From assembly GCA_050329555.1 (NCBI GenBank), contig JBHJOQ010000026.1, positions 1 to 54,985 on the forward strand: DNA of 54,985 nucleotides. Direction: 5' to 3'. The notes under the pieces were generated by a model. It was not told the DNA's origin. It ran no database searches and saw only the letters and a program-made list of their open reading frames with translations. This document shows, piece by piece, positions 1-53,080 of the stretch (position 1 is the stretch's first letter; every line of letters starts with the position of its first letter). The translations under genes were made by a program, and so were the position numbers. The DNA is from Acidimicrobiia bacterium. GTDB lineage: Bacteria; Actinomycetota; Acidimicrobiia; Spongiisociales; ZC4RG35.

Positions 1-618
1 GCCGACAATCGAGAAGCTTTGATGTGGTTTGCCAACATGGGCTGTATCGAGGTCCACCCTTTCCACGCTCGCGCGGACAGTCTCGACATGCCCGACTACG
101 CAGTCTTCGACTTCGACCCCGCGGAGGGATCGGTCTGGGACCAGGTGGTCGCCGGGGGAGATTTGCTCAAAGTGGCCCTCGGCCAACTCGGCCTCGAGGG
201 CTACCCCAAACTCTCGGGCTCGAAAGGCCTCCACGTCTATGTGCCTCTGGAGCCGGTGCACACCTACGAGCGTGTCCGCCGCTTCGTCGGTGAGGTCGGC
301 AACTATCTCGCTTCGGCCAACCCCGACGACCTGACGATGGAGTGGGAAAAGCCGAAGCGGAAGGGAAAGGTCCTGATCGACCACAACCGCAACGCCTCCG
401 GCCAGACCGTTGCTGCCGCATACTCGGTCCGCCCACGCCCGGGTGCCCCGGTATCGGTTCCGCTGACCTGGGACGAGGTCCCGAAAATCAAGAACGGAGA
501 CGTTACCATTGCCAATCTCTGGGAGCGGATCCAGAAACACGGCGACCTTTTCGAGCCGGTGATCAAAGGCGGTCAAGCCCTCGACGACGCCGAGAAGGCC
601 CTGCAGATCACCGACTAG
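1..618 (+). CDS. ligD: NHEJ LigD-type primase-polymerase domain protein (5' truncated by window edge)
   Basis: Frame open from base 1; motifs IEVHP, FDFDP, KLSGSKGLHVYVPL, IDHNRN, YSVRPRPGAPVSVPLTWDE. Confidence 0.85.
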   Translation, partial: ADNREALMWFANMGCIEVHPFHARADSLDMPDYAVFDFDPAEGSVWDQVVAGGDLLKVALGQLGLEGYPKLSGSKGLHVYVPLEPVHTYERVRRFVGEVGNYLASANPDDLTMEWEKPKRKGKVLIDHNRNASGQTVAAAYSVRPRPGAPVSVPLTWDEVPKIKNGDVTIANLWERIQKHGDLFEPVIKGGQALDDAEKALQITD

Positions 619-1436
619 TCGACGATTGCGCTCTCGGTGCTCAGCTCGGCTTTCGCCCGCTTCCAGAACAGGATCAGCGCACCAAGGATCATCACACCGA
701 TGGAGACCCATGCGTTGCGGCTGAGGCCGAGGAACCGGAAGGTGGTGTCGGTGCGGATCAGCTCCATGAGGAACCTGAAAAAGGCGTACCCGAGGAAGTA
801 GACGCCGACCAGCCGCCCGCTGAGCTGGGTGTAACGCTTGCCGAGCCAGATGATGAAGAAGGCGAGTGATACGTTCCATATCGATTCGTAGAGGAAGGTG
901 GGATGGAAGGCTTCGGCGTCGAGATATGCCTCGGGCCGGTGCTGAGGGTCGATCTCCACACCCCAGGGGAGATCGGTCGGCGTCCCGAAAAGCTCCTGGT
1001 TGAAGTAGTTGCCCCAGCGGCCGAAAGCCTGGGCGAGGGGCACGGCCGGCGCCACCGAGTCGAGCAGATGGGGGAGGCTCGAGTTCCACTTCCGGCTGTA
1101 CACGATCATGACAATCGCGCCCGCGGTCAGCCCGCCGTAGAGGGCGAGGCCTCCCTCCCAGATTGCGATCACCTTCCACCATTCCCCCTCGAACCGGGAC
1201 AGGTGAGTGGAGACATAACCGAATCGCGCACCGAGGAAGCCGAAGATCAGGACCCGGGCCAGGATCCGGCCCAGCACCTCGCTGTCGCCACCGCGGGCAG
1301 TGAAGCGCCGCTCGGTCACCTGCCAGGCAACCGCGACCCCGATCGCGATCAGCATCCCGTAGAAAGTCACCCGGACCGGGCCGATATGGAAGCTGTTGAT
1401 CGGGGGGGATGGGAAAGAGGCGAGTATCTGGTGCAT
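615..1436 (-). CDS. lgt: Prolipoprotein diacylglyceryl transferase
   Basis: IWEGGLALYGG, AQAFGRWGNYFNQELFG and HPTFLYES signature motifs; multiple TM helices. Confidence 0.95.
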   Translation of the reverse strand: MHQILASFPSPPINSFHIGPVRVTFYGMLIAIGVAVAWQVTERRFTARGGDSEVLGRILARVLIFGFLGARFGYVSTHLSRFEGEWWKVIAIWEGGLALYGGLTAGAIVMIVYSRKWNSSLPHLLDSVAPAVPLAQAFGRWGNYFNQELFGTPTDLPWGVEIDPQHRPEAYLDAEAFHPTFLYESIWNVSLAFFIIWLGKRYTQLSGRLVGVYFLGYAFFRFLMELIRTDTTFRFLGLSRNAWVSIGVMILGALILFWKRAKAELSTESAIVD

Positions 1437-1541: not shown

Positions 1542-4289
1542 TTGATCATTCAGCGCACCCGGGGCAGCTCCGATCCAACCGCGATGATCACTGCAACATC
1601 ACGCTTGCCTCTCAGGTCGAGTTTCGTCGTCCTGCTTGTCGTGCTTGCCCTTGTGGTCGCGCCCACCCTCGACGCTTTGGCCGTGCAGGCACCCTCGCCG
1701 TCGTCTTCGCTCTTCGTGCAGACTTCCGGGCCGAACGCCGGGCTCAGCATTGGCGACTATTACACGTCACCAGCCGGTGGCGATACCGACCATCTCTTCA
1801 TGATCCGGGTCCCGGCGGACTGGCCGGCGGGCACCCCGGTGACCGTTGCTTTGTACGACCCCGAGATCGGGGGAGTCGACCCGGTTTCGCCGACCGCTGC
1901 CGACGAGGTCAGGGGCGCCGCCGACAGCGCACAGTTCAGGCTGGAGTCTCCAACCGGATCGGTCGTGGCGTCGGCGACCTACAGCGACCTCTCCACGAAT
2001 GGTGCATGGGCCGAGCTGGCAACGTTTGACCCCGGGACCGTCGGGACCGGCACCTACCACCTCCGCGTCAGCGTGTCCGACGACGACGACAACTCATGGC
2101 GCGTCGATGTGTCCCATGATCCCGACTGTGCCGTCGGAGGCCCCGGGACGTGTCCTGCACCAAGTCTGGTCAACGGCAACGAGGTCTCCCGGGCGCCTTC
2201 GGGCTCAGGTGCTCTCGCGGTCGGGGTGATCCGGACCAGCTGGCAACACGAAGGGCCCGGTTCGAGCTGTCAGGACCACATATTCTTTGTCAACAGCGCG
2301 ACTCCCCGGCCGCTGCGTGCCCACAACTTCGACATGGACGGGAGAGGGTCGGTGACCTACACGACACCCAACGGGGCGAACGTCGTGGGAACGGTGTCCG
2401 GCAACGCAAGTTGGAACAACAGCAGCGATGCCAACCGGGTGGGCGACGTCCTCCCCGACATCAACGGTTGGTGGACAGCCGAAATCTGCATAGGCGCCCA
2501 CAACCAGTACGTCTTCGAGGCACCTTCGGCAGGACCATCGTTCCCGGAGCCTCAGCCTGCTCCTCGAATCGCCGTGGATAAAACCGACGGTGAGGAAACG
2601 CTCATGCTTGGTGACGAGACAACATACACGGTGACCATCGAAAACGTCTCCGATGACGATCCGCTCCCCGGCAGCGCTTATAACCTCGTCGCCACGGACA
2701 TCTTGCCGGAAGGAGTTGAATTCGTCACCTGTCGCACCACCGACTTCGCCTGTTCGGAAACAGGCGGTGTCGTGACAGCTACCCTCGCCGCACCACTGCA
2801 GCCGGGCACGTCGGTGTCATTCGACGTCGTGGTGATAGTCGCCCCGGATGCCGGCCTCACCATCACCAACGTGGTCGATGTCGACTTCCGCGATCACATC
2901 GGAAACGATCATGAGACGGCTTCGGCTTCCGACGTCAACGACATCGATTTCGTCCCGACTCTCACCATGAGTGTCTCCGGGCCTGTCGAAGTGCTGCGCG
3001 GCGACTCCGCCGCTCTCTTCTACACGCTCGAGCACGGAGACGCATCGGATGGATCGCCGGTGACGATGGTCGACGTCACCTGCGGGCTGTGTTTGGCTAT
3101 TACCTATCAAAGTGGAGACACCAACGCCAACGGCATCCTGGAGGCGACCGAAGCCTGGATCTATGCAGCGGTGGTGTCAAGCGATGACTCATCCCCGTCG
3201 CTCATAGCCGCCGAAGCAATTGCCAGTGGTCTCGACGCCAATGGCGAAGACGTGACCGCCTCGGTCGTCGGCCAGGTCACACTGATCGAGCCGGGGGAGA
3301 TCTCCGGCGTCGTCTTCGAAGATCTCAACGGCAATGGCGAGCTCGACCCCGGTGAGCTCGGCCTCCCCGGCGTCTCGGTGCAGCTGAGCGATGTCGACGG
3401 GCCCGTCGACCTCGCGACTGCGGTTGATGGTGCCTACGAATTCAGTCATCTTCAACCCCGCGCCTACACGGTGACCCCGGTCGGAGTCTCCAGCCCATTC
3501 CTGGCTACAAGCGGCGAATCGGTGTCAGTGGGCCTCGGCGCAGGCCAGACGCTGGGCGGCGTGAACTTCGGCTTCGCCCTGCCCGTGACGATCTCGGGCA
3601 CGACCTTCCACGACGCAGACCATGACGGCTTTTTCGATCCGGGGGAGGCGGGTGTGGGCGGAGTCGTCCTGTCGCTAGTTGATGCCGACGGTGTCGTCAT
3701 GGCAACCACGAGCTCGACCGACGATGGCGCCTACAGCTTCAGCGCCCTTCCCGGCGAGTACACGGTTGTCGTCGACACCGGCTGGCCGAAGGGTTGGGCG
3801 ATGAGAACGCCCGCCGCCGCCGTCGCAGGGCTCGTGCTTTCCGGCCAGGATCGGACCGGGCTCGACTTCGGCGCCTCGAACACCGCACCGGTAATGGTCG
3901 ACGGAACCCAGACGATCAACGCTGGCGAGACGCCCTCGGGGTTGATAGCCACCGACGCCGAGGGTGACCGGGTCACGTTCACCTTTGCGGGCGGCCTGCT
4001 TCCTGCCGGCCTGAGCCTCGAGAACGACGGAACCTTCAGCGGATCCGCGACTCTGGGCGGCGTCTATCAGTTCTTCGTGGAGGTCTGCGACCAAGCCGAC
4101 CCGGTCGCTTGCGCAACCTTCGCGTATGAAATCCGTGTGATCGGCACCGTGGTCGTAGCGAACGAGGTGCTGCCATTCACCGGTGCTGATTCCGGGGAGC
4201 TGGTATTCACCGCTTTGATCCTTCTCGTCGGAGGGGTAACGATGACCTTCGGTGGCCCGGCCCGTCTGGAAGAATCAGCGAAGCGCTGA
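1542..4289 (+). CDS. Large sortase-anchored surface protein (unknown N-terminal domain, DUF11, SdrD B-like repeats, Ig-like domain, LPFTG); true start may be ATG 1584
   Basis: Hydrophobic signal peptide; DUF11-like KT..YTVTIEN..DILPEG; ISGVVFEDLNGNGELDPGE and ISGTTFHDADHDGFFDPGE repeats; LPAGLSL Ig-like motif; C-terminal LPFTG, TM helix and basic tail. Confidence 0.8.
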   Translation: MIIQRTRGSSDPTAMITATSRLPLRSSFVVLLVVLALVVAPTLDALAVQAPSPSSSLFVQTSGPNAGLSIGDYYTSPAGGDTDHLFMIRVPADWPAGTPVTVALYDPEIGGVDPVSPTAADEVRGAADSAQFRLESPTGSVVASATYSDLSTNGAWAELATFDPGTVGTGTYHLRVSVSDDDDNSWRVDVSHDPDCAVGGPGTCPAPSLVNGNEVSRAPSGSGALAVGVIRTSWQHEGPGSSCQDHIFFVNSATPRPLRAHNFDMDGRGSVTYTTPNGANVVGTVSGNASWNNSSDANRVGDVLPDINGWWTAEICIGAHNQYVFEAPSAGPSFPEPQPAPRIAVDKTDGEETLMLGDETTYTVTIENVSDDDPLPGSAYNLVATDILPEGVEFVTCRTTDFACSETGGVVTATLAAPLQPGTSVSFDVVVIVAPDAGLTITNVVDVDFRDHIGNDHETASASDVNDIDFVPTLTMSVSGPVEVLRGDSAALFYTLEHGDASDGSPVTMVDVTCGLCLAITYQSGDTNANGILEATEAWIYAAVVSSDDSSPSLIAAEAIASGLDANGEDVTASVVGQVTLIEPGEISGVVFEDLNGNGELDPGELGLPGVSVQLSDVDGPVDLATAVDGAYEFSHLQPRAYTVTPVGVSSPFLATSGESVSVGLGAGQTLGGVNFGFALPVTISGTTFHDADHDGFFDPGEAGVGGVVLSLVDADGVVMATTSSTDDGAYSFSALPGEYTVVVDTGWPKGWAMRTPAAAVAGLVLSGQDRTGLDFGASNTAPVMVDGTQTINAGETPSGLIATDAEGDRVTFTFAGGLLPAGLSLENDGTFSGSATLGGVYQFFVEVCDQADPVACATFAYEIRVIGTVVVANEVLPFTGADSGELVFTALILLVGGVTMTFGGPARLEESAKR

Positions 4290-4373
4290 CCTCCCGCAGA
4301 ACGATCTGGCCCTGATCCGTGACCAAGAGGCCGTGCGATCCCACATTCCCCGTGGACTCGCTAGGTTTCAGTC

Positions 4374-5444
4374 ATGGACCTTTACGCCAGAGTGAACATC
4401 CTCGGTGGTCTTTCGGTCAGGTTGCCTCACGGAGGGCTCGACGAAGCGATACCACTCGACAACGATCCGATCGGCAGAGCCCGCAATTGGGTCGAACAAG
4501 GAATCAAGTACTTGCACATCGTCGACCTCGACGCGGCTGCCTACAGCGATGCCCGCAACCGCAACCTCATCTACGAGCTCGTCGAGTCGGTCGACGCCAA
4601 AGTCCAGGTCGCTGGTGGGATCCGTTCGGAGAGCGAGGCGGAGTCTTTCATCAAACGAGGAGCATGGCGGATCGTGATGGGGACCGCGGCGATCGAGAAC
4701 CAGAACATGATCTGGGATCTGTGTCGCGACAACCCCGAGAAGATCGTGGTGGCTCTCGACGTTCGCGCCGACGAGGAGATCGCCACCCGGGGATGGACCC
4801 AAAACAGCGGTCGCTACCTCGAAGAGGTGATGATCGAGATGTCCTCGGCCGGAGTAGTTGCATTTCTCGTCTCCGAGGCCGGTCGCAACGCCCTCGAAGA
4901 CGTCCCCAACTTCCAGCTGATTGGCTCTGCACTCGCCACCGTCGAGGAGCCGGTCATTGCTTCCGGTGGGGTGCGAAATCTTGAAGATCTCCGTCGCCTG
5001 GTCTCACTCGAGTCTTCCGGCCGTCGCCTCGGAGGAGTGATCGTGGGGCGCGAGGTCACGGCCGGTCGGTTCACCGTCGAGGAGGCAATCGAGGTGATGG
5101 CGGGCCGGGGCTCATCCCGTGCGCCCGGTGGCATCGTTGCCGCCCGTCAACTGCTCCAGGTTGGCTCCGTGGACGAGGCAATGCACTTTCTCGAGCATGT
5201 TGTTGGACTCTCCCGGGTCCGGTCGCCCGAATCGGGCGTCCTCGGCACAGTCCTCGAGGTCGCCGAAGGCCAGCAGGTCGAGTTGATCCAGGGACCTTCA
5301 GGGCAGACCGCAACCCTTGCGTTGCTCGTTGAAGACCCCGAGCCCTGGCTCGAGCACTTCAACGCACAGGAGATCGAAACCGTGCGGACGTCAGCGGGCC
5401 TGGAAGTCTCCGGCCCTGGCGGGCTCACACTCAGGTTTGAATGA
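4374..5444 (+). CDS. HisA/PriA-like TIM-barrel protein (catalytic Asp replaced by Asn) fused to a C-terminal VOC/glyoxalase-like domain
   Basis: LHIVDLD, QVAGGIR, MGTAA, VALDVR, TRGW, IASGGV and VIVGR motifs of HisA; last ~110 aa follow a VOC beta-alpha-beta-beta-beta x2 pattern. Confidence 0.8.
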   Translation: MDLYARVNILGGLSVRLPHGGLDEAIPLDNDPIGRARNWVEQGIKYLHIVDLDAAAYSDARNRNLIYELVESVDAKVQVAGGIRSESEAESFIKRGAWRIVMGTAAIENQNMIWDLCRDNPEKIVVALDVRADEEIATRGWTQNSGRYLEEVMIEMSSAGVVAFLVSEAGRNALEDVPNFQLIGSALATVEEPVIASGGVRNLEDLRRLVSLESSGRRLGGVIVGREVTAGRFTVEEAIEVMAGRGSSRAPGGIVAARQLLQVGSVDEAMHFLEHVVGLSRVRSPESGVLGTVLEVAEGQQVELIQGPSGQTATLALLVEDPEPWLEHFNAQEIETVRTSAGLEVSGPGGLTLRFE

Positions 5445-5506
5445 ACCCCGGGTGGGGTTCCCCGTTCGGCTCCGCCTCCGGGGAAACAGCCGCTCGCTTC
5501 GCTTCG
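5443..5506. repeat. Hairpin-rich intergenic element between convergent genes (terminator or REP-like)
   Basis: GAACCCC-gggt-GGGGTTC and TTCCCCG...CGGGGAA stems followed by CGCTCGCTTCGCTTCGCT. Confidence 0.45.
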
Positions 5507-7057
5507 CTAACTGATCAGGGTGCGGGACTGTTCCCTCAGGAACTGACGCAGGTACCAGGGACCGCCGCCGCCGGTCCCGGAGGTTCCCGACCCCTTCCAG
5601 CCTCCGAATGACTGGATGTCGGGCCAGGCGCCGGTGGTCGCCCCAGCGGCGCGGTTGACATAGGTCGTCCCTGCCTGGATCCGGGCGAACCACTTCTCGA
5701 TCTCGGCGTCATCGGTTGAAAACAGCCCGGCGGTGAGACCAAAGTCGGTGTCGTTGGACAGTTCGATGGCCTCGTCCACGGAGTCGACGGCGGTGACTGC
5801 GACCAGCGGCGCAAACAGTTCCTCTTTCCACACCCAGGACTCCCGGGGTGCGTTGACAACGGTCGGCTGTACATAGTTTCCCTTGCCGAATTCTCCTTCG
5901 GTGAGGACCTCACCGCCTGCAAGTACCTCGCCACCGTCGTCCCGCACCGCAGCAACGGCTTTGGTGAAGCGATCGACCGCATCCCCGTCGATTACCGGGC
6001 CCATGAAGGTGCTCTGTTCCAGAGGATTCCCGACGGTGATCTCGTGTGTCCGAGAAACCAGCTTGTTGATGAACTGGTCGTAGACGGGCCGCTCGACATA
6101 GACCCGCGACGTTGCCGAGCACTTCTGCCCGCTCAAACCGAAGGCGCCCCGGAAAACTCCTTCTGCGGCGATGTCGAGATCGGCCGTGGCTGAGACGATC
6201 GCCGGATTCTTCCCGCCCATCTCAGCAGCTACGGGCTTGGGCCGCTTTTCGTTCACGGTGCGGTACAGATACATCCCCACGGGGTAGGACCCGGTGAAGG
6301 TGAGGCCGTCGATTCCCTCGTGGTGGGCTAGGTGGTCTCCGGTACCGTCACCACCGGTCAGCACATGCAGGGCGCCCTCGGGGAGGCCGGCCTCGCGCAT
6401 GATCCTGTAGAACTCGAGAGCCATGAGCGCGCCGGTATTCGACGGTTTGAGGACCACCGTGTTTCCGGTGATCAGCGCACCCGTCGAAGGGCCTCCGCTG
6501 AGTGCCAGCGGGAAGTTGAATGGCGAGATGACCGCCCAGGTGCCCCAGGGACGGAGCACGGAGATGTTGGTCTCGTTGTCGGAAAGCGAGCTCAATGGCG
6601 TGACAAAACCGTTGTGCTCGGTGATCTGCTTCGAGTAGTAGCGAAGGAATTCGACGGTCTCGGCGACATCGCCGAGGGCTTCCAACCGGTTTTTCCCCAC
6701 CTCGAAAGACATCAGTGCGGCAAGGTCGAACATCTCTTCGTCCATGATGTCGGCAGCTGACATCATGAGGTCGCGTCGCCGCTCCCACCCCCACGCCTCC
6801 CACTCCGGGGCGAACGCCCGAGCGGCCGCTACCGCATCGTCCACATCCTGGGTAGTGGCCTGGGCGTAAATACCGACGACGAGGTCCCGATCGATTGGCG
6901 ATCTCTCCTCGTACAGCGCCCGGTCGGTGCGTTCTTCGCCGTCGACCCACACGCCGTACGCAGCGCCCAGACGCTGCCTCGCCTTCTCAACGGCGTGTTC
7001 GTAGGCCTGATTCAGCTCCTCGTTGTCTGCAGACATCGTGGCGTAAGTGATCTTCAT
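5507..7057 (-). CDS. Aldehyde dehydrogenase, 1-pyrroline-5-carboxylate dehydrogenase-like
   Basis: SPFNFP, FTGS, EMGGKNP, GQKCSA, EELFAP, TTGAWPDIQSFGGWKGSG. Confidence 0.85.
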   Translation of the reverse strand: MKITYATMSADNEELNQAYEHAVEKARQRLGAAYGVWVDGEERTDRALYEERSPIDRDLVVGIYAQATTQDVDDAVAAARAFAPEWEAWGWERRRDLMMSAADIMDEEMFDLAALMSFEVGKNRLEALGDVAETVEFLRYYSKQITEHNGFVTPLSSLSDNETNISVLRPWGTWAVISPFNFPLALSGGPSTGALITGNTVVLKPSNTGALMALEFYRIMREAGLPEGALHVLTGGDGTGDHLAHHEGIDGLTFTGSYPVGMYLYRTVNEKRPKPVAAEMGGKNPAIVSATADLDIAAEGVFRGAFGLSGQKCSATSRVYVERPVYDQFINKLVSRTHEITVGNPLEQSTFMGPVIDGDAVDRFTKAVAAVRDDGGEVLAGGEVLTEGEFGKGNYVQPTVVNAPRESWVWKEELFAPLVAVTAVDSVDEAIELSNDTDFGLTAGLFSTDDAEIEKWFARIQAGTTYVNRAAGATTGAWPDIQSFGGWKGSGTSGTGGGGPWYLRQFLREQSRTLIS

Positions 7058-51285: not shown

Positions 51286-52185
51286 GTGACCGCCAACACC
51301 TCATTCGAGATCACGGTCGATGTCCCGGTGCGCAGCCGGCTGGCGGCATATGTGGCTCTGACCAAGCCGCGCATCATCGAATTACTCTTGATCACGACCG
51401 TGCCGGCCATGGTCCTGGCTGCGGGCGGATGGCCCGGCACCTTGCTGGTGGTGGCCACCCTCCTCGGCGGGACGCTGTCAGCCGCAGGGGCAAACACCTT
51501 GAACTGCGTCTACGACGCCGACATCGACGAATTGATGAGACGGACCCGAGGACGGCCCCTCGCCCGACACGAGGTCTCACCGCAGAATGCCCTCATCTTC
51601 GGAGTGGCGCTCGGCGCTTGCGGCTTTGCCGTGCTCTGGGCGGCGGCAAACCTGCTGGCGGCGGTCCTGAGCACAGCTGCTTTGCTGTTCTACGTATTCG
51701 TCTACACGATCTATCTCAAACGGCGGACGGCACACAACATCGTCATTGGCGGCGCGGCCGGAGCCGCACCGGTGCTGGTTGGGTGGGCTGCGGTGACCGG
51801 CTCTCTCGCGGTGACACCGTGGGTCCTCTTTCTCATCGTGTTCTATTGGACGCCTCCGCACTTCTGGGCGCTTGCGGTGCGTTATCGGGACGATTACGCA
51901 AGTGCGGGAGTCCCCATGCTCCCGGTGGTTGCCGGGGTGGATCACACCACCCGCCGCATGCTCCTCTACACCGGCCTCATGGTCGGTGTCAGCCTCCTCC
52001 TCGTACCCGTTGCCGGCCTGCGCTGGGTATACCTTGCCTCGGCCCTCGCTCTTGGAGGTTGGTTCCTGGCCGACACCTGGCTCGTGTACAGAGACCCGGC
52101 AAAGGCGATGCGGCTCTTCACAACGTCGACCGTCTATCTGTCTGCATTGTTCGGTGCAGCCATGGTCGATGTCCTCATCCGATGA
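51286..52185 (+). CDS. ctaB: Protoheme IX farnesyltransferase (heme o synthase)
   Basis: LTKPRII, D.DID..M.RT..RP, LKRRT..NIVIGG.AG, WTPPHFWALA, DY...GVPMLP. Confidence 0.96.
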   Translation: MTANTSFEITVDVPVRSRLAAYVALTKPRIIELLLITTVPAMVLAAGGWPGTLLVVATLLGGTLSAAGANTLNCVYDADIDELMRRTRGRPLARHEVSPQNALIFGVALGACGFAVLWAAANLLAAVLSTAALLFYVFVYTIYLKRRTAHNIVIGGAAGAAPVLVGWAAVTGSLAVTPWVLFLIVFYWTPPHFWALAVRYRDDYASAGVPMLPVVAGVDHTTRRMLLYTGLMVGVSLLLVPVAGLRWVYLASALALGGWFLADTWLVYRDPAKAMRLFTTSTVYLSALFGAAMVDVLIR

Positions 52186-53024
52186 GAACGATCCGACTGG
52201 CCGCCGCGTTACTCACGGCAGTATTTCTGATCACCGCATGCTCCTCAGGACCGGAACCGCTGGCGTTCATCGCCTCGAGTGGGGCGTCGATCGGCACGGG
52301 TGAGCAGCGCATCCTCATTGCCCTGGTCGACCCGGAGACCAACGCCTACCTAGCAACTGAGAATGATGCCGCCACCGCCCTTCTCCGCAACGAGGACGGA
52401 AGCCCGCTAGGCAATTACGAGCTGGACTTCGTCTGGACCGTCCCTGGTGTGCGCGGCATATACGTCGGGTACTTCGAGATCCCCGAGGCCGGGGTGTACC
52501 AACTGACCGTCGAACGAGAGGGCCTTACGGCCTCCGGGCCCACCGGGTTTGTGACCGTGGACAACCCTCCGATGATCGGGCCCGGTGACCGGGCACCACT
52601 CTCGGAGACACGGGTCGGGGACGACTTTGCAGATTTGTCTTTGATCACCACCGATCCTCAGCCGGCTTCGGATCTATACTCGATGACGGTGGCCGAGGCA
52701 GTCTCCAATGGCACGCCGTCGGTGGTGATCTTCGCAACCCCGGCTTTCTGCACCACCCAGGCATGCGGACCGATGCTGTCCCAGATCAAGGACTTGAAGT
52801 TCGACTACCCCGGCATCGACTTCGTCCATGTCGAGATCTATGAGAACCTGCAGGTGGAGACCGTCGAGGAGCTGGTAGTGGTCGACTCAGTACGCGAGTG
52901 GCAGCTTCCCAGCGAGCCCTGGGTCTACATCATCGACGCTGACGGTGTTGTCGTGGCTGCGTTCGAAGGTGCGGTCAACGACGACGAATTGACGTCGGTG
53001 CTGGACGGGTTCGCCGGCTCATGA
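52182..53024 (+). CDS. Lipoprotein with Ig-like N-domain and thioredoxin-like C-domain (CxxxxC)
   Basis: Lipobox ITAC; VVIFATPAFCTTQACGP, FVHVEIY, LPSEPWVYIIDADG..FEG; ATGA overlap with ctaB. Confidence 0.75.
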   Translation: MRTIRLAAALLTAVFLITACSSGPEPLAFIASSGASIGTGEQRILIALVDPETNAYLATENDAATALLRNEDGSPLGNYELDFVWTVPGVRGIYVGYFEIPEAGVYQLTVEREGLTASGPTGFVTVDNPPMIGPGDRAPLSETRVGDDFADLSLITTDPQPASDLYSMTVAEAVSNGTPSVVIFATPAFCTTQACGPMLSQIKDLKFDYPGIDFVHVEIYENLQVETVEELVVVDSVREWQLPSEPWVYIIDADGVVVAAFEGAVNDDELTSVLDGFAGS

Positions 53025-53080
53025 GAGCGCCGAGGATGAAGTTGGTCGGGCGTCGAAAGACCCCTTATGATGCCGAACCA

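Follow-up and report, generated by a model that had tools for sequence, protein, structure and literature searches.

The window analysed here is a DNA stretch of 54,985 nucleotides from an Acidimicrobiia bacterium (assembly GCA_050329555.1, contig JBHJOQ010000026.1, positions 1 to 54,985 of the forward strand), and the gene in question encodes a HisA-like protein that begins with ATG in the open reading frame (ORF) list. It consists of a (beta-alpha)8 barrel of the HisA/PriA type followed by a domain of the VOC (vicinal oxygen chelate) fold (Table 1), and it carries asparagine at both positions where HisA and PriA have their catalytic aspartates. The barrel belongs to a family that is restricted to a single order, is monophyletic and is under strong purifying selection. 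Asparagine at the base position is almost invariant in this family, and the gene is kept even in genomes where the histidine pathway was not found. On balance we lean, by a modest degree, towards a neofunctionalised HisA derivative that is no longer an isomerase and that would act as an enzyme on a phosphoribosyl- or nucleotide-like metabolite not derived from histidine synthesis.

The relationship of the barrel to HisA is clear at the level of the fold. Pfam His_biosynth (PF00977) gives 163 bits over residues 8–228, where the cut-off is 23.6, and the closest solved structures are actinobacterial PriA (phmmer, E about 1e-38; Streptomyces coelicolor PriA, 1vzw/2vep). The full-length AlphaFold2 (AF2) model has a mean predicted local distance difference test score (pLDDT) of 88.4 and a predicted template modelling score (pTM) of 0.74, and it superimposes on PriA and HisA with target-normalised template modelling (TM) scores of 0.85–0.92 at 30–35% identity (Foldseek). 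At the level of specific function the protein falls below every cut-off consulted, with 166.5 bits for the HisA equivalog TIGR00007 (cut-off 228.95), 149.2 for TIGR01919 (hisA-trpF; cut-off 306.45) and 150.5 for PRK13585 (cut-off 243). The substrate- and phosphate-binding motifs that an earlier note on this DNA had listed, i.e., LHIVDLD, GGIR, GTAA, LDVR, TRGW, SGG, and VGR, are all present. In the linker that leads out of the barrel A250, P251, G252, and G253 are invariant across 31 tails.

Table 1. Coordinates of the HisA-like gene and its parts in the window.
Feature	Position	Strand	Description	Basis
Whole gene	4374..5444	+	356 amino acids (aa), HisA-derived barrel and VOC tail, stop codon included	ORF list, sequence
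HisA/PriA-type (beta-alpha)8 barrel, residues 1-243	4374..5102	+		PF00977, phmmer, AF2, Foldseek
Beta-1 signature R6-V7-N8 (HisA: A-I-D)	4389..4397	+	N8 at the catalytic-base position, codon AAC 4395-4397	
N-terminal phosphate site A80-G81-G82-I83-R84	4611..4625	+	Counterpart binds the non-reacting ribose phosphate of ProFAR in S. enterica HisA	
Beta-6 loop E168-A-G-R-N172-A173-L174 (HisA: D-I-x-R-D-G-T)	4875..4895	+	N172 at the catalytic-acid position, codon AAC 4887-4889	
End of beta-8, G225-R226-E227-V228-T229 (HisA: G-K/R-A-L-Y)	5046..5060	+	E227, a family-specific invariant carboxylate	
Linker with conserved APGG motif, residues 244-253	5103..5132	+	Mean pLDDT 72 over residues 241-250 and 76 over residues 251-260	
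VOC (glyoxalase/bleomycin-resistance fold) domain, residues 254-356	5133..5441	+	Two beta-alpha-beta-beta-beta modules; conserved E303, W325, H328, E356	

The general base of HisA and PriA is Asp7/Asp11. In the phmmer alignment to S. coelicolor PriA the counterpart of this residue, the Asp of AVDVRDG (chain residue 11), is N8, and the Asp of IAKDG (residue 171 counted from the printed coordinates) is N172, while the Asp of the PriA motif TD aligns with E168. The earlier reading of a HisA/PriA barrel with AAC codons at both catalytic positions is thus borne out. On the acid side, D176 of Salmonella enterica HisA and D175 of Mycobacterium tuberculosis PriA are named as the catalytic aspartate (PMC9088769), Asp11 and Asp175 are marked as catalytic residues in a figure legend (PMC13055916), and D176A and D176V of the S. 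enterica enzyme appear in a table as having lost HisA activity (PMC7591586); papers cited here by PMC number are cited from parts of their text.

The two positions behave differently across the family. In an alignment of 121 sequences, position 8 is Asn in 117, Lys in one (P0116) and a gap in three that are truncated at the N-terminus, so that 117 of the 118 homologs covering the position carry Asn. The same residue is found in all six divergent representatives (P0121, P0123–P0126, and P0129) and in all ten genome loci examined. When 41 family rows were compared with 113 HisA representatives, N8 and R6 each had a frequency of 0.98 in the former, the corresponding HisA residues were D (0.97) and A (0.95), and Asn at the base position occurred in none of the 113. 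Both Asn codons, AAC and AAT, are used at positions 8 and 172 in different metagenome-assembled genomes (MAGs), and selection for Asn at the base position, as suggested earlier, is well supported. At position 172, on the other hand, Asp is present in 103 of the 121 sequences and Asn in 18, the divergent P0123 having Asn here as well as at position 8, and the neighbouring E168 is invariant (121/121). By a FastTree tree with 120 rows, built without this column, the state at position 172 has changed between D and N at least 12 times, and a carboxylate is plainly not required at the "acid" position. The loss of both aspartates, which had been noted earlier, is consequently a feature of the protein in the window and some of its relatives; for the family as a whole only the substitution of the base is fixed.

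It could be argued that the gene is a dying, strain-specific copy of hisA or that the two Asn codons are sequencing errors. The chance of this is close to nil, in line with the earlier expectation of an intact paralog under selection. All 120 homologs have an unbroken ORF. The ratio of nonsynonymous to synonymous substitution rates (dN/dS) of the barrel against close relatives is 0.024–0.047 (dS 0.4–1.2), i.e., in the range of 0.02–0.05, and that of the VOC tail is 0.044–0.078. Five MAGs with a homolog that is 92–95% identical have Asn at both positions, encoded by AAC or AAT. Independent contigs from runs X2 and X5 span both codons, and among the 40 differences listed, of 48, none hits either codon; contigs from runs X3 and X4 cover the gene only in part. 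Both Asn codons thus recur in independent MAGs and contigs.

The pocket of the barrel is conserved on one side and changed on the other. Residues R16, H48, D51, D53, G81, G82, R84, G103, T104, D129, G140, W141, G198, G199, and G225 are invariant in the family as well as in HisA, with G81, G82, and R84 belonging to the N-terminal phosphate site. In S. enterica HisA the residues 80, 81, 83, and 102/103 hold the non-reacting ribose phosphate of the substrate, N'-[(5'-phosphoribosyl)formimino]-5-aminoimidazole-4-carboxamide ribonucleotide (ProFAR), and W145 stacks on it (PMC7591586, PMC9088769); the counterparts of these non-reacting-side residues are kept in the family, R84, T104, W141, and R16 included. 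Both phosphate-site motifs are present (G81-G82-x-R84 with G103-T104, and G198-G199 with G225-R226), but the surroundings of the C-terminal one are altered by G173A, T174L, and A227E. The family-specific replacements are P5A, A6R, D8N, G80A, D168E, G173A, A227E, and Y229T, to which R201 is added, and the HisA residues lost at P5A, A6R, G80A, D168E, G173A, A227E, and Y229T are 81–98% conserved at those positions. E227, V228, and T229 each reach 1.00 in the family rows where HisA has A (0.96), L (0.76), and Y (0.86), and alignment A1 likewise shows no variation at these three; in addition, A173 and L174 stand where HisA has G (0.98) and M or T. About 25 further family-specific substitutions accompany the fixed Asn. 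The result is a set of signatures by which the family can be told from HisA: LYARVNIL against LYPAIDL in beta-1, VAGGIRS against xGGGxRx in the beta-3 loop, SEAGR(D/N)ALxDPPN against T(D/E)IxRDGTxxGP(D/N) in the beta-6 loop, and VGREVT against xGKALY in beta-8, with SGGVR as the family signature of beta-7. The changed residues cluster on strands 1, 6, and 8, which by homology would lie around the ribose that reacts and the phosphate attached to it.

The family is sharply delimited. The best 120 hits of a word-indexed search were all 322–359 aa long, and most cover the entire query at 63–90% identity; their label is ProFAR isomerase at the Joint Genome Institute (JGI) and "HisA/HisF-related TIM barrel protein" at NCBI. 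An exhaustive search of 50%-identity representatives, in a library of 1.84 billion representatives, revealed a gap in scores between the clusters of the family (297–360 bits) and ordinary HisA/PriA, which begin at about 165 bits and about 40% identity. In a sample of 201 genomes of the class, 49 of the window's own order and 152 of other orders, the family gene (at least 270 bits) was present in 43 of the 49 and in none of the 152, where the best match, with 185 bits and about 40% identity, was an ordinary HisA. Within the order it was found in 21 of 21 genomes of family f1, to which the genome of the window (G000) belongs, in 5 of 8 of f2, 8 of 9 of f3, 6 of 6 of f4, in the only genome of each of f5, f7, and f8, and in neither of the two of f6. 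A quick IQ-TREE analysis of 41 barrel sequences recovered the family as one clade, with 100 in the Shimodaira–Hasegawa-like approximate likelihood ratio test (SH-aLRT) and a stem of 0.82; its sister group was not settled by this tree.

How the gene relates to histidine synthesis is best approached from the genomes that carry it. In agreement with the earlier note, no histidine-pathway Pfam family was found among the scanned genes of the window, and across the 40 + 10 loci examined the family gene stands in no his operon. PF00977 matches three proteins in the genome of the window (2.67 Mb, completeness 91%): HisF, the product of the HisA-like gene, and a protein of 419 aa encoded directly after hisB-hisH-hisF, at the end of the his operon (L001:2238-3497; G000:C45, about 51792-53051). 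This protein is a HisA-like domain fused to HisI and HisE, so that another HisA candidate does exist elsewhere in the genome, as had been anticipated; a TrpF is present too. The HisA-like domain of the fusion is itself very divergent (end branch of 2.48 in the tree; 131.9 bits for TIGR00007), keeps the base Asp in the motif SIDIVDG and has Glu at the acid position. Genomes G023 and G186 have a canonical second HisA with both aspartates, located beside hisD or hisG.

Two further ideas were considered and rejected. A coupling to the HisA::HisIE fusion does not hold: of 61 genomes sampled from the order, 11 have a full-length match to this fusion, spread without pattern across f1, f3, f6, f7, and f45, and among the carriers are G078 and G126, where no family match was obtained. 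Nor can a PriA have been made redundant by the gain of TrpF, which is found throughout the class (150 of 201 genomes). In G007, G082, and G102 the TrpF match is confined to the last, C-terminal third of the Pfam profile. For comparison, HisA of Acidimicrobium ferrooxidans has been reported to be ProFAR-specific (PMC4462073).

Four genomes, G007 (99% complete, 2 contigs), G033 (98%), G102 (95%), and G190 (97%), contain an intact family gene of 357–361 aa. In these four there is no other PF00977 match above the Pfam cut-off, and HisF, a second HisA, phosphoribosyl-AMP cyclohydrolase (PRA-CH, HisI), histidinol dehydrogenase (HisD), imidazoleglycerol-phosphate dehydratase (IGPD), and HisG were not found. 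All his families sought are present in G082, which was searched alongside, and PurH was found in all five genomes tested and indole-3-glycerol phosphate synthase (IGPS) in four of the five. The joint absence of six his families from four near-complete genomes in two genera is hard to explain by chance. These bacteria, with genomes of 2.2–2.9 Mb, are likely histidine auxotrophs. A family gene that is retained without the pathway cannot depend on endogenous ProFAR or on the ribulosyl product of its isomerisation (PRFAR).

This observation bears on two explanations that would keep the protein close to its ancestry. The first, put forward in the earlier note, is that it is a sensor of ProFAR or PRFAR or a chaperone of the histidine pathway, with signalling through the VOC domain. 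The non-reacting half of the ProFAR site is kept (R84, T104, W141, R16) and the genome of the window does have a his pathway, which would suit such a role. Retention of the gene in the four genomes where six his families were not found makes ProFAR or PRFAR an unlikely ligand, the side of the reacting ribose is altered (A173, L174, and E227 for G, T/M, and A), and 28 of the 43 family genes in the class sample have no VOC tail; we regard the proposal as highly improbable. The second explanation is that the protein is still a working HisA/PriA isomerase in which another residue, e.g., E227 or E168, has taken over as the base. Its TIGR00007 score is higher than that of the HisA-like domain in the operon, D129 and the phosphate motifs are kept, and new invariant carboxylates are at hand. 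Against this, the gene co-exists with a canonical HisA in G023 and G186 and with HisA-HisIE in the genome of the window, it is retained where the pathway was not found, it lies outside his operons at all loci examined, and its acid position toggles to Asn whereas D176A and D176V of S. enterica lose activity (PMC7591586). A relocated base of this kind is highly improbable.

The C-terminal domain is of the VOC type, as had been recognised from the sequence. The match of the query tail to PF00903 is marginal (E=0.024, 15.5 bits against a cut-off of 20.6), but of the 31 tails of homologs 26 reach E≤0.1, the best with 2.2e-9. The AF2 model of residues 250–356 (pLDDT 87) has two beta-alpha-beta-beta-beta modules and gives 199 Foldseek matches in the PDB at E≤0.001, and all among the top matches listed are VOC proteins. 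The statement that the tail has no obvious His or Glu metal ligands needs to be revised, since E303 (118/121), H328 (121/121), and E356 (117/121) are conserved. The HMMER alignment to E. coli glyoxalase I covers Arg258 and E303; we take Arg258 to occupy the position of the first-strand His ligand and E303 that of the canonical Glu of the strand-4 type. H328 and E356, conserved as they are, presumably do not fall on canonical metal-ligand positions of VOC proteins.

When two copies of the tail were modelled together the score was 0.49, compared with 0.00 for the best of three controls; by rough counts, made with our own alignment, 20 of 30 proteins with a solved structure of two identical chains attained a score of 0.49, as did 1 of 23 whose structure is a single chain. 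At least 96% of contacts are common to the three runs, with a pLDDT of at least 82 for the partner. In the predicted homodimer the subunits pair through beta-1 and beta-5, and the modelled interface (domain residues 1–11, 47–54, 65–72, 75–79, and 107) includes E303, V319, W325, H328, and E356. As many VOC dimers have been solved, the homodimer model may reflect nothing but likeness to them. The tail is a lineage-specific accessory that probably makes the protein a homodimer, and a pocket between the subunits may be lined by E303, H328, and E356.

That the tail is an accessory is consistent with its distribution. A match in the VOC region is found in 15 of the 43 family genes of the class sample, and these include the query's part of f1; VOC tails also occur in G094, P0123, P0125, and P0133. 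Proteins of f2 and f7 have no tail at all (245–251 aa), those of f3 have about 45 residues with the motif GPWSRAELD...WL, and in part of f1 and in f4 there is a helical extension of about 90 residues (AAAHARTA...). As tails are variable or absent, the barrel is the functional core, and signalling through the VOC module, as suggested earlier, cannot well be the core mechanism. Of the features whose conservation was to be tested according to the earlier note, N8 is fixed, but N172 (18 of 121) and the VOC tail are not.

Two further observations concern VOC domains in this context. In G186 a stand-alone gene for a glyoxalase/VOC protein of 140 aa (L060:4786-5205) lies in divergent orientation beside the canonical second HisA and near hisG, which may be a coincidence but is worth noting in view of the fusion in the window. 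The nearest look-alikes outside HisA in the ESM Atlas are KDPG/KHG-aldolase barrels of about 340 aa with a C-terminal glyoxalase domain from Chloroflexota (0.79 against a lead level of 0.9). A fusion of a TIM barrel to a VOC domain may be a recurring architecture.

The surroundings of the gene are conserved within f1. Among 40 related loci and the window, 34 have a gene for an AP_endonuc_2::LigD-PrimPol protein upstream and 32 an aldehyde dehydrogenase gene in convergent orientation downstream, and beyond the latter the gene order in f1 continues with a histidine kinase, PlsY and an LPG-synthase-like gene. Only some members of the query's clade have two additional genes, for Lgt (615-1436, minus strand) and for a surface protein of 915 aa, that separate the PrimPol gene from the HisA-like gene. 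The gene order of f1 does not extend to f2, f3, and f4, where the neighbourhoods are unrelated; we therefore read it as inherited, and the neighbours were rejected as a functional link.

Some of the neighbours deserve mention in their own right. The AP_endonuc_2::LigD-PrimPol protein (window 1-618, plus strand; L004:1352-3214) joins a xylose-isomerase-like/AP-endonuclease-2 TIM barrel to a primase-polymerase in about 600–660 aa, a domain combination that is unusual among proteins of end-joining repair. The 915-aa protein (1542-4289, plus strand) is secreted and has DUF11, SdrD-B, He_PIG, and SpaA-like domains; its C-terminus has an LPFTG motif followed by a hydrophobic stretch, by eye an anchor of the sortase type. 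As for signals in front of the HisA-like gene, the hexamer TAGGTT, earlier proposed as its own -10 element, does occur at 4362-4367, 6 nt before the ATG, but a scan with the sigma-70 consensus found no promoter-like site in 4100-5700, nor was there any terminator-like site in this region. We assume that the spacing of TAGGTT to ATG would fit a leaderless actinobacterial transcript. No Shine-Dalgarno-like purine run was seen in 4362-4373. An Rfam scan of 3900-5800 (E≤1) returned two sub-threshold matches to eukaryotic families and no riboswitch or leader.

Taken together, it is likely by a slight margin over even that the family has arisen from HisA and changed its function, giving an enzyme for a phosphoribosyl- or nucleotide-like metabolite from outside the histidine pathway. 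The protein would no longer catalyse the Amadori rearrangement of ProFAR or phosphoribosylanthranilate (PRA). The half of the pocket that is kept (G81, G82, R84, T104, W141, and R16) would grip a 5'-phosphate and stack a planar ring on Trp141, and the reacting half, in which charged residues have newly become conserved (R6, E168, R201, and E227), would have been rebuilt for another moiety of the ligand or for another chemistry. N8 would serve as a hydrogen-bonding residue, and D129, E168, and E227 are the candidate catalytic carboxylates. To this core the VOC tail would add, in some lineages, probable homodimerisation and possibly a pocket between subunits. The earlier note had mentioned a new chemistry as an alternative; this is possible, and it is now the alternative that we prefer.

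It is conceivable that the barrel is instead a catalytically dead binder, which takes up a phosphoribosyl-type metabolite and sequesters it or regulates a partner. Engineered HisA and PriA with the D7N or D11N change have been crystallised with ProFAR or PRFAR, the query's clade has Asn at both catalytic positions, position 172 accepts D as well as N, and the variable C-terminal modules could be output or oligomerisation modules. However, members of 245–251 aa have no tail and hence no output domain, no partner gene is conserved throughout the order, and the many invariant charged residues of the pocket, the new R6 and E227 included, exceed the usual needs of binding. The existence of tail-less members without an output domain and the invariance of the new charged residues are the reasons for favouring an enzyme over a pure binder, which we consider unlikely, if a good deal more credible than a sensor of the histidine pathway or an isomerase with a relocated base.

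Several points speak against the enzyme that we favour, or limit it. First, the choice of an enzyme over a binder draws on priors, as TIM barrels are usually enzymes and there are tail-less members of 245 aa. Second, the family is known here from sequences and models, and this applies to its putative ligand and activity as well. Third, R6, E168, and E227 are placed relative to the pocket by sequence register. Fourth, the genomes without his genes are MAGs, which are 95–99% complete, one with 2 contigs, and not closed. Fifth, errors in the FastTree tree would inflate the count of at least 12 D/N changes. Finally, the gene neighbourhood yields no clue to function.

HisA, PriA, HisF, and TrpF are a standard model for the gain and loss of function in (beta-alpha)8 enzymes. 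If the favoured interpretation is true, an order-wide family in which the base is fixed as Asn, only the reacting half of the pocket is rebuilt and the gene outlasts the his pathway constitutes a natural experiment in neofunctionalisation. The wider claim is more tentative, and we place it a little short of even: that this is the first natural HisA/PriA clade to give up the Amadori acid-base pair while under housekeeping-grade selection and independently of histidine synthesis, whether for a new chemistry (E227, E168, D129) or as a metabolite-binding pseudoenzyme. In either case the family is a concrete target for deorphanisation. There is also a consequence for annotation, as the JGI label "ProFAR isomerase" would wrongly credit histidine-auxotrophic genomes with the HisA step.

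Among known systems the nearest are PriA and HisA themselves (1vzw/2vep; M. tuberculosis, 3zs4/2y88; S. enterica, 5a5w), with which the protein shares the (beta-alpha)8 fold, both phosphate glycine motifs and R16, H48, D51, D53, R84, T104, D129, and W141. It differs from them in that the base Asp is replaced by Asn family-wide and the acid Asp by Asn in the protein studied, and in that its gene lies outside the his operon, scores under the equivalog cut-offs and encodes a C-terminal VOC domain. The same isosteric change of the base has been engineered in D7N/D11N HisA and PriA, for which PDB titles (5ahf, 5a5w, 2y88) record crystals with bound ProFAR or PRFAR; these variants are true isomerases mutated in the laboratory, whereas Asn is naturally fixed here. 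The small VOC proteins (glyoxalase I, FosA/FosB/FosX, bleomycin-resistance-like proteins, and TnmS) have the same two-module fold as the tail, with query-normalised TM scores of 0.6–0.74 but only 10–23% identity, and the present VOC domain, unlike theirs, follows a TIM barrel in one polypeptide.

In the literature searched, beyond whose reach most subscription journals lie and of which parts of texts were covered, no description of an Asn-bearing, HisA-derived family of Acidimicrobiia was found, and the single mention of "Acidimicrobi" in the covered part of PMC13055916 is a HisA seed sequence. The natural shifts found in print, namely subHisA (PDB title) and SubTrpF2 and AdeK (PMC13055916), keep both catalytic aspartates; for SubTrpF2 and AdeK, Asp11, Asp130, and Asp175 are shown as conserved and HisA or TrpF activity is kept (PMC13055916). 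AdeK from nucleoside-antibiotic clusters and SubTrpF2 from Ornithinimicrobiaceae nevertheless offer the closest parallel, as in both a paralog stands beside a housekeeping copy and active-site substitutions mark a functional shift (PMC13055916). Unlike them, the Acidimicrobiia family has lost the base Asp and is not part of a biosynthetic cluster.

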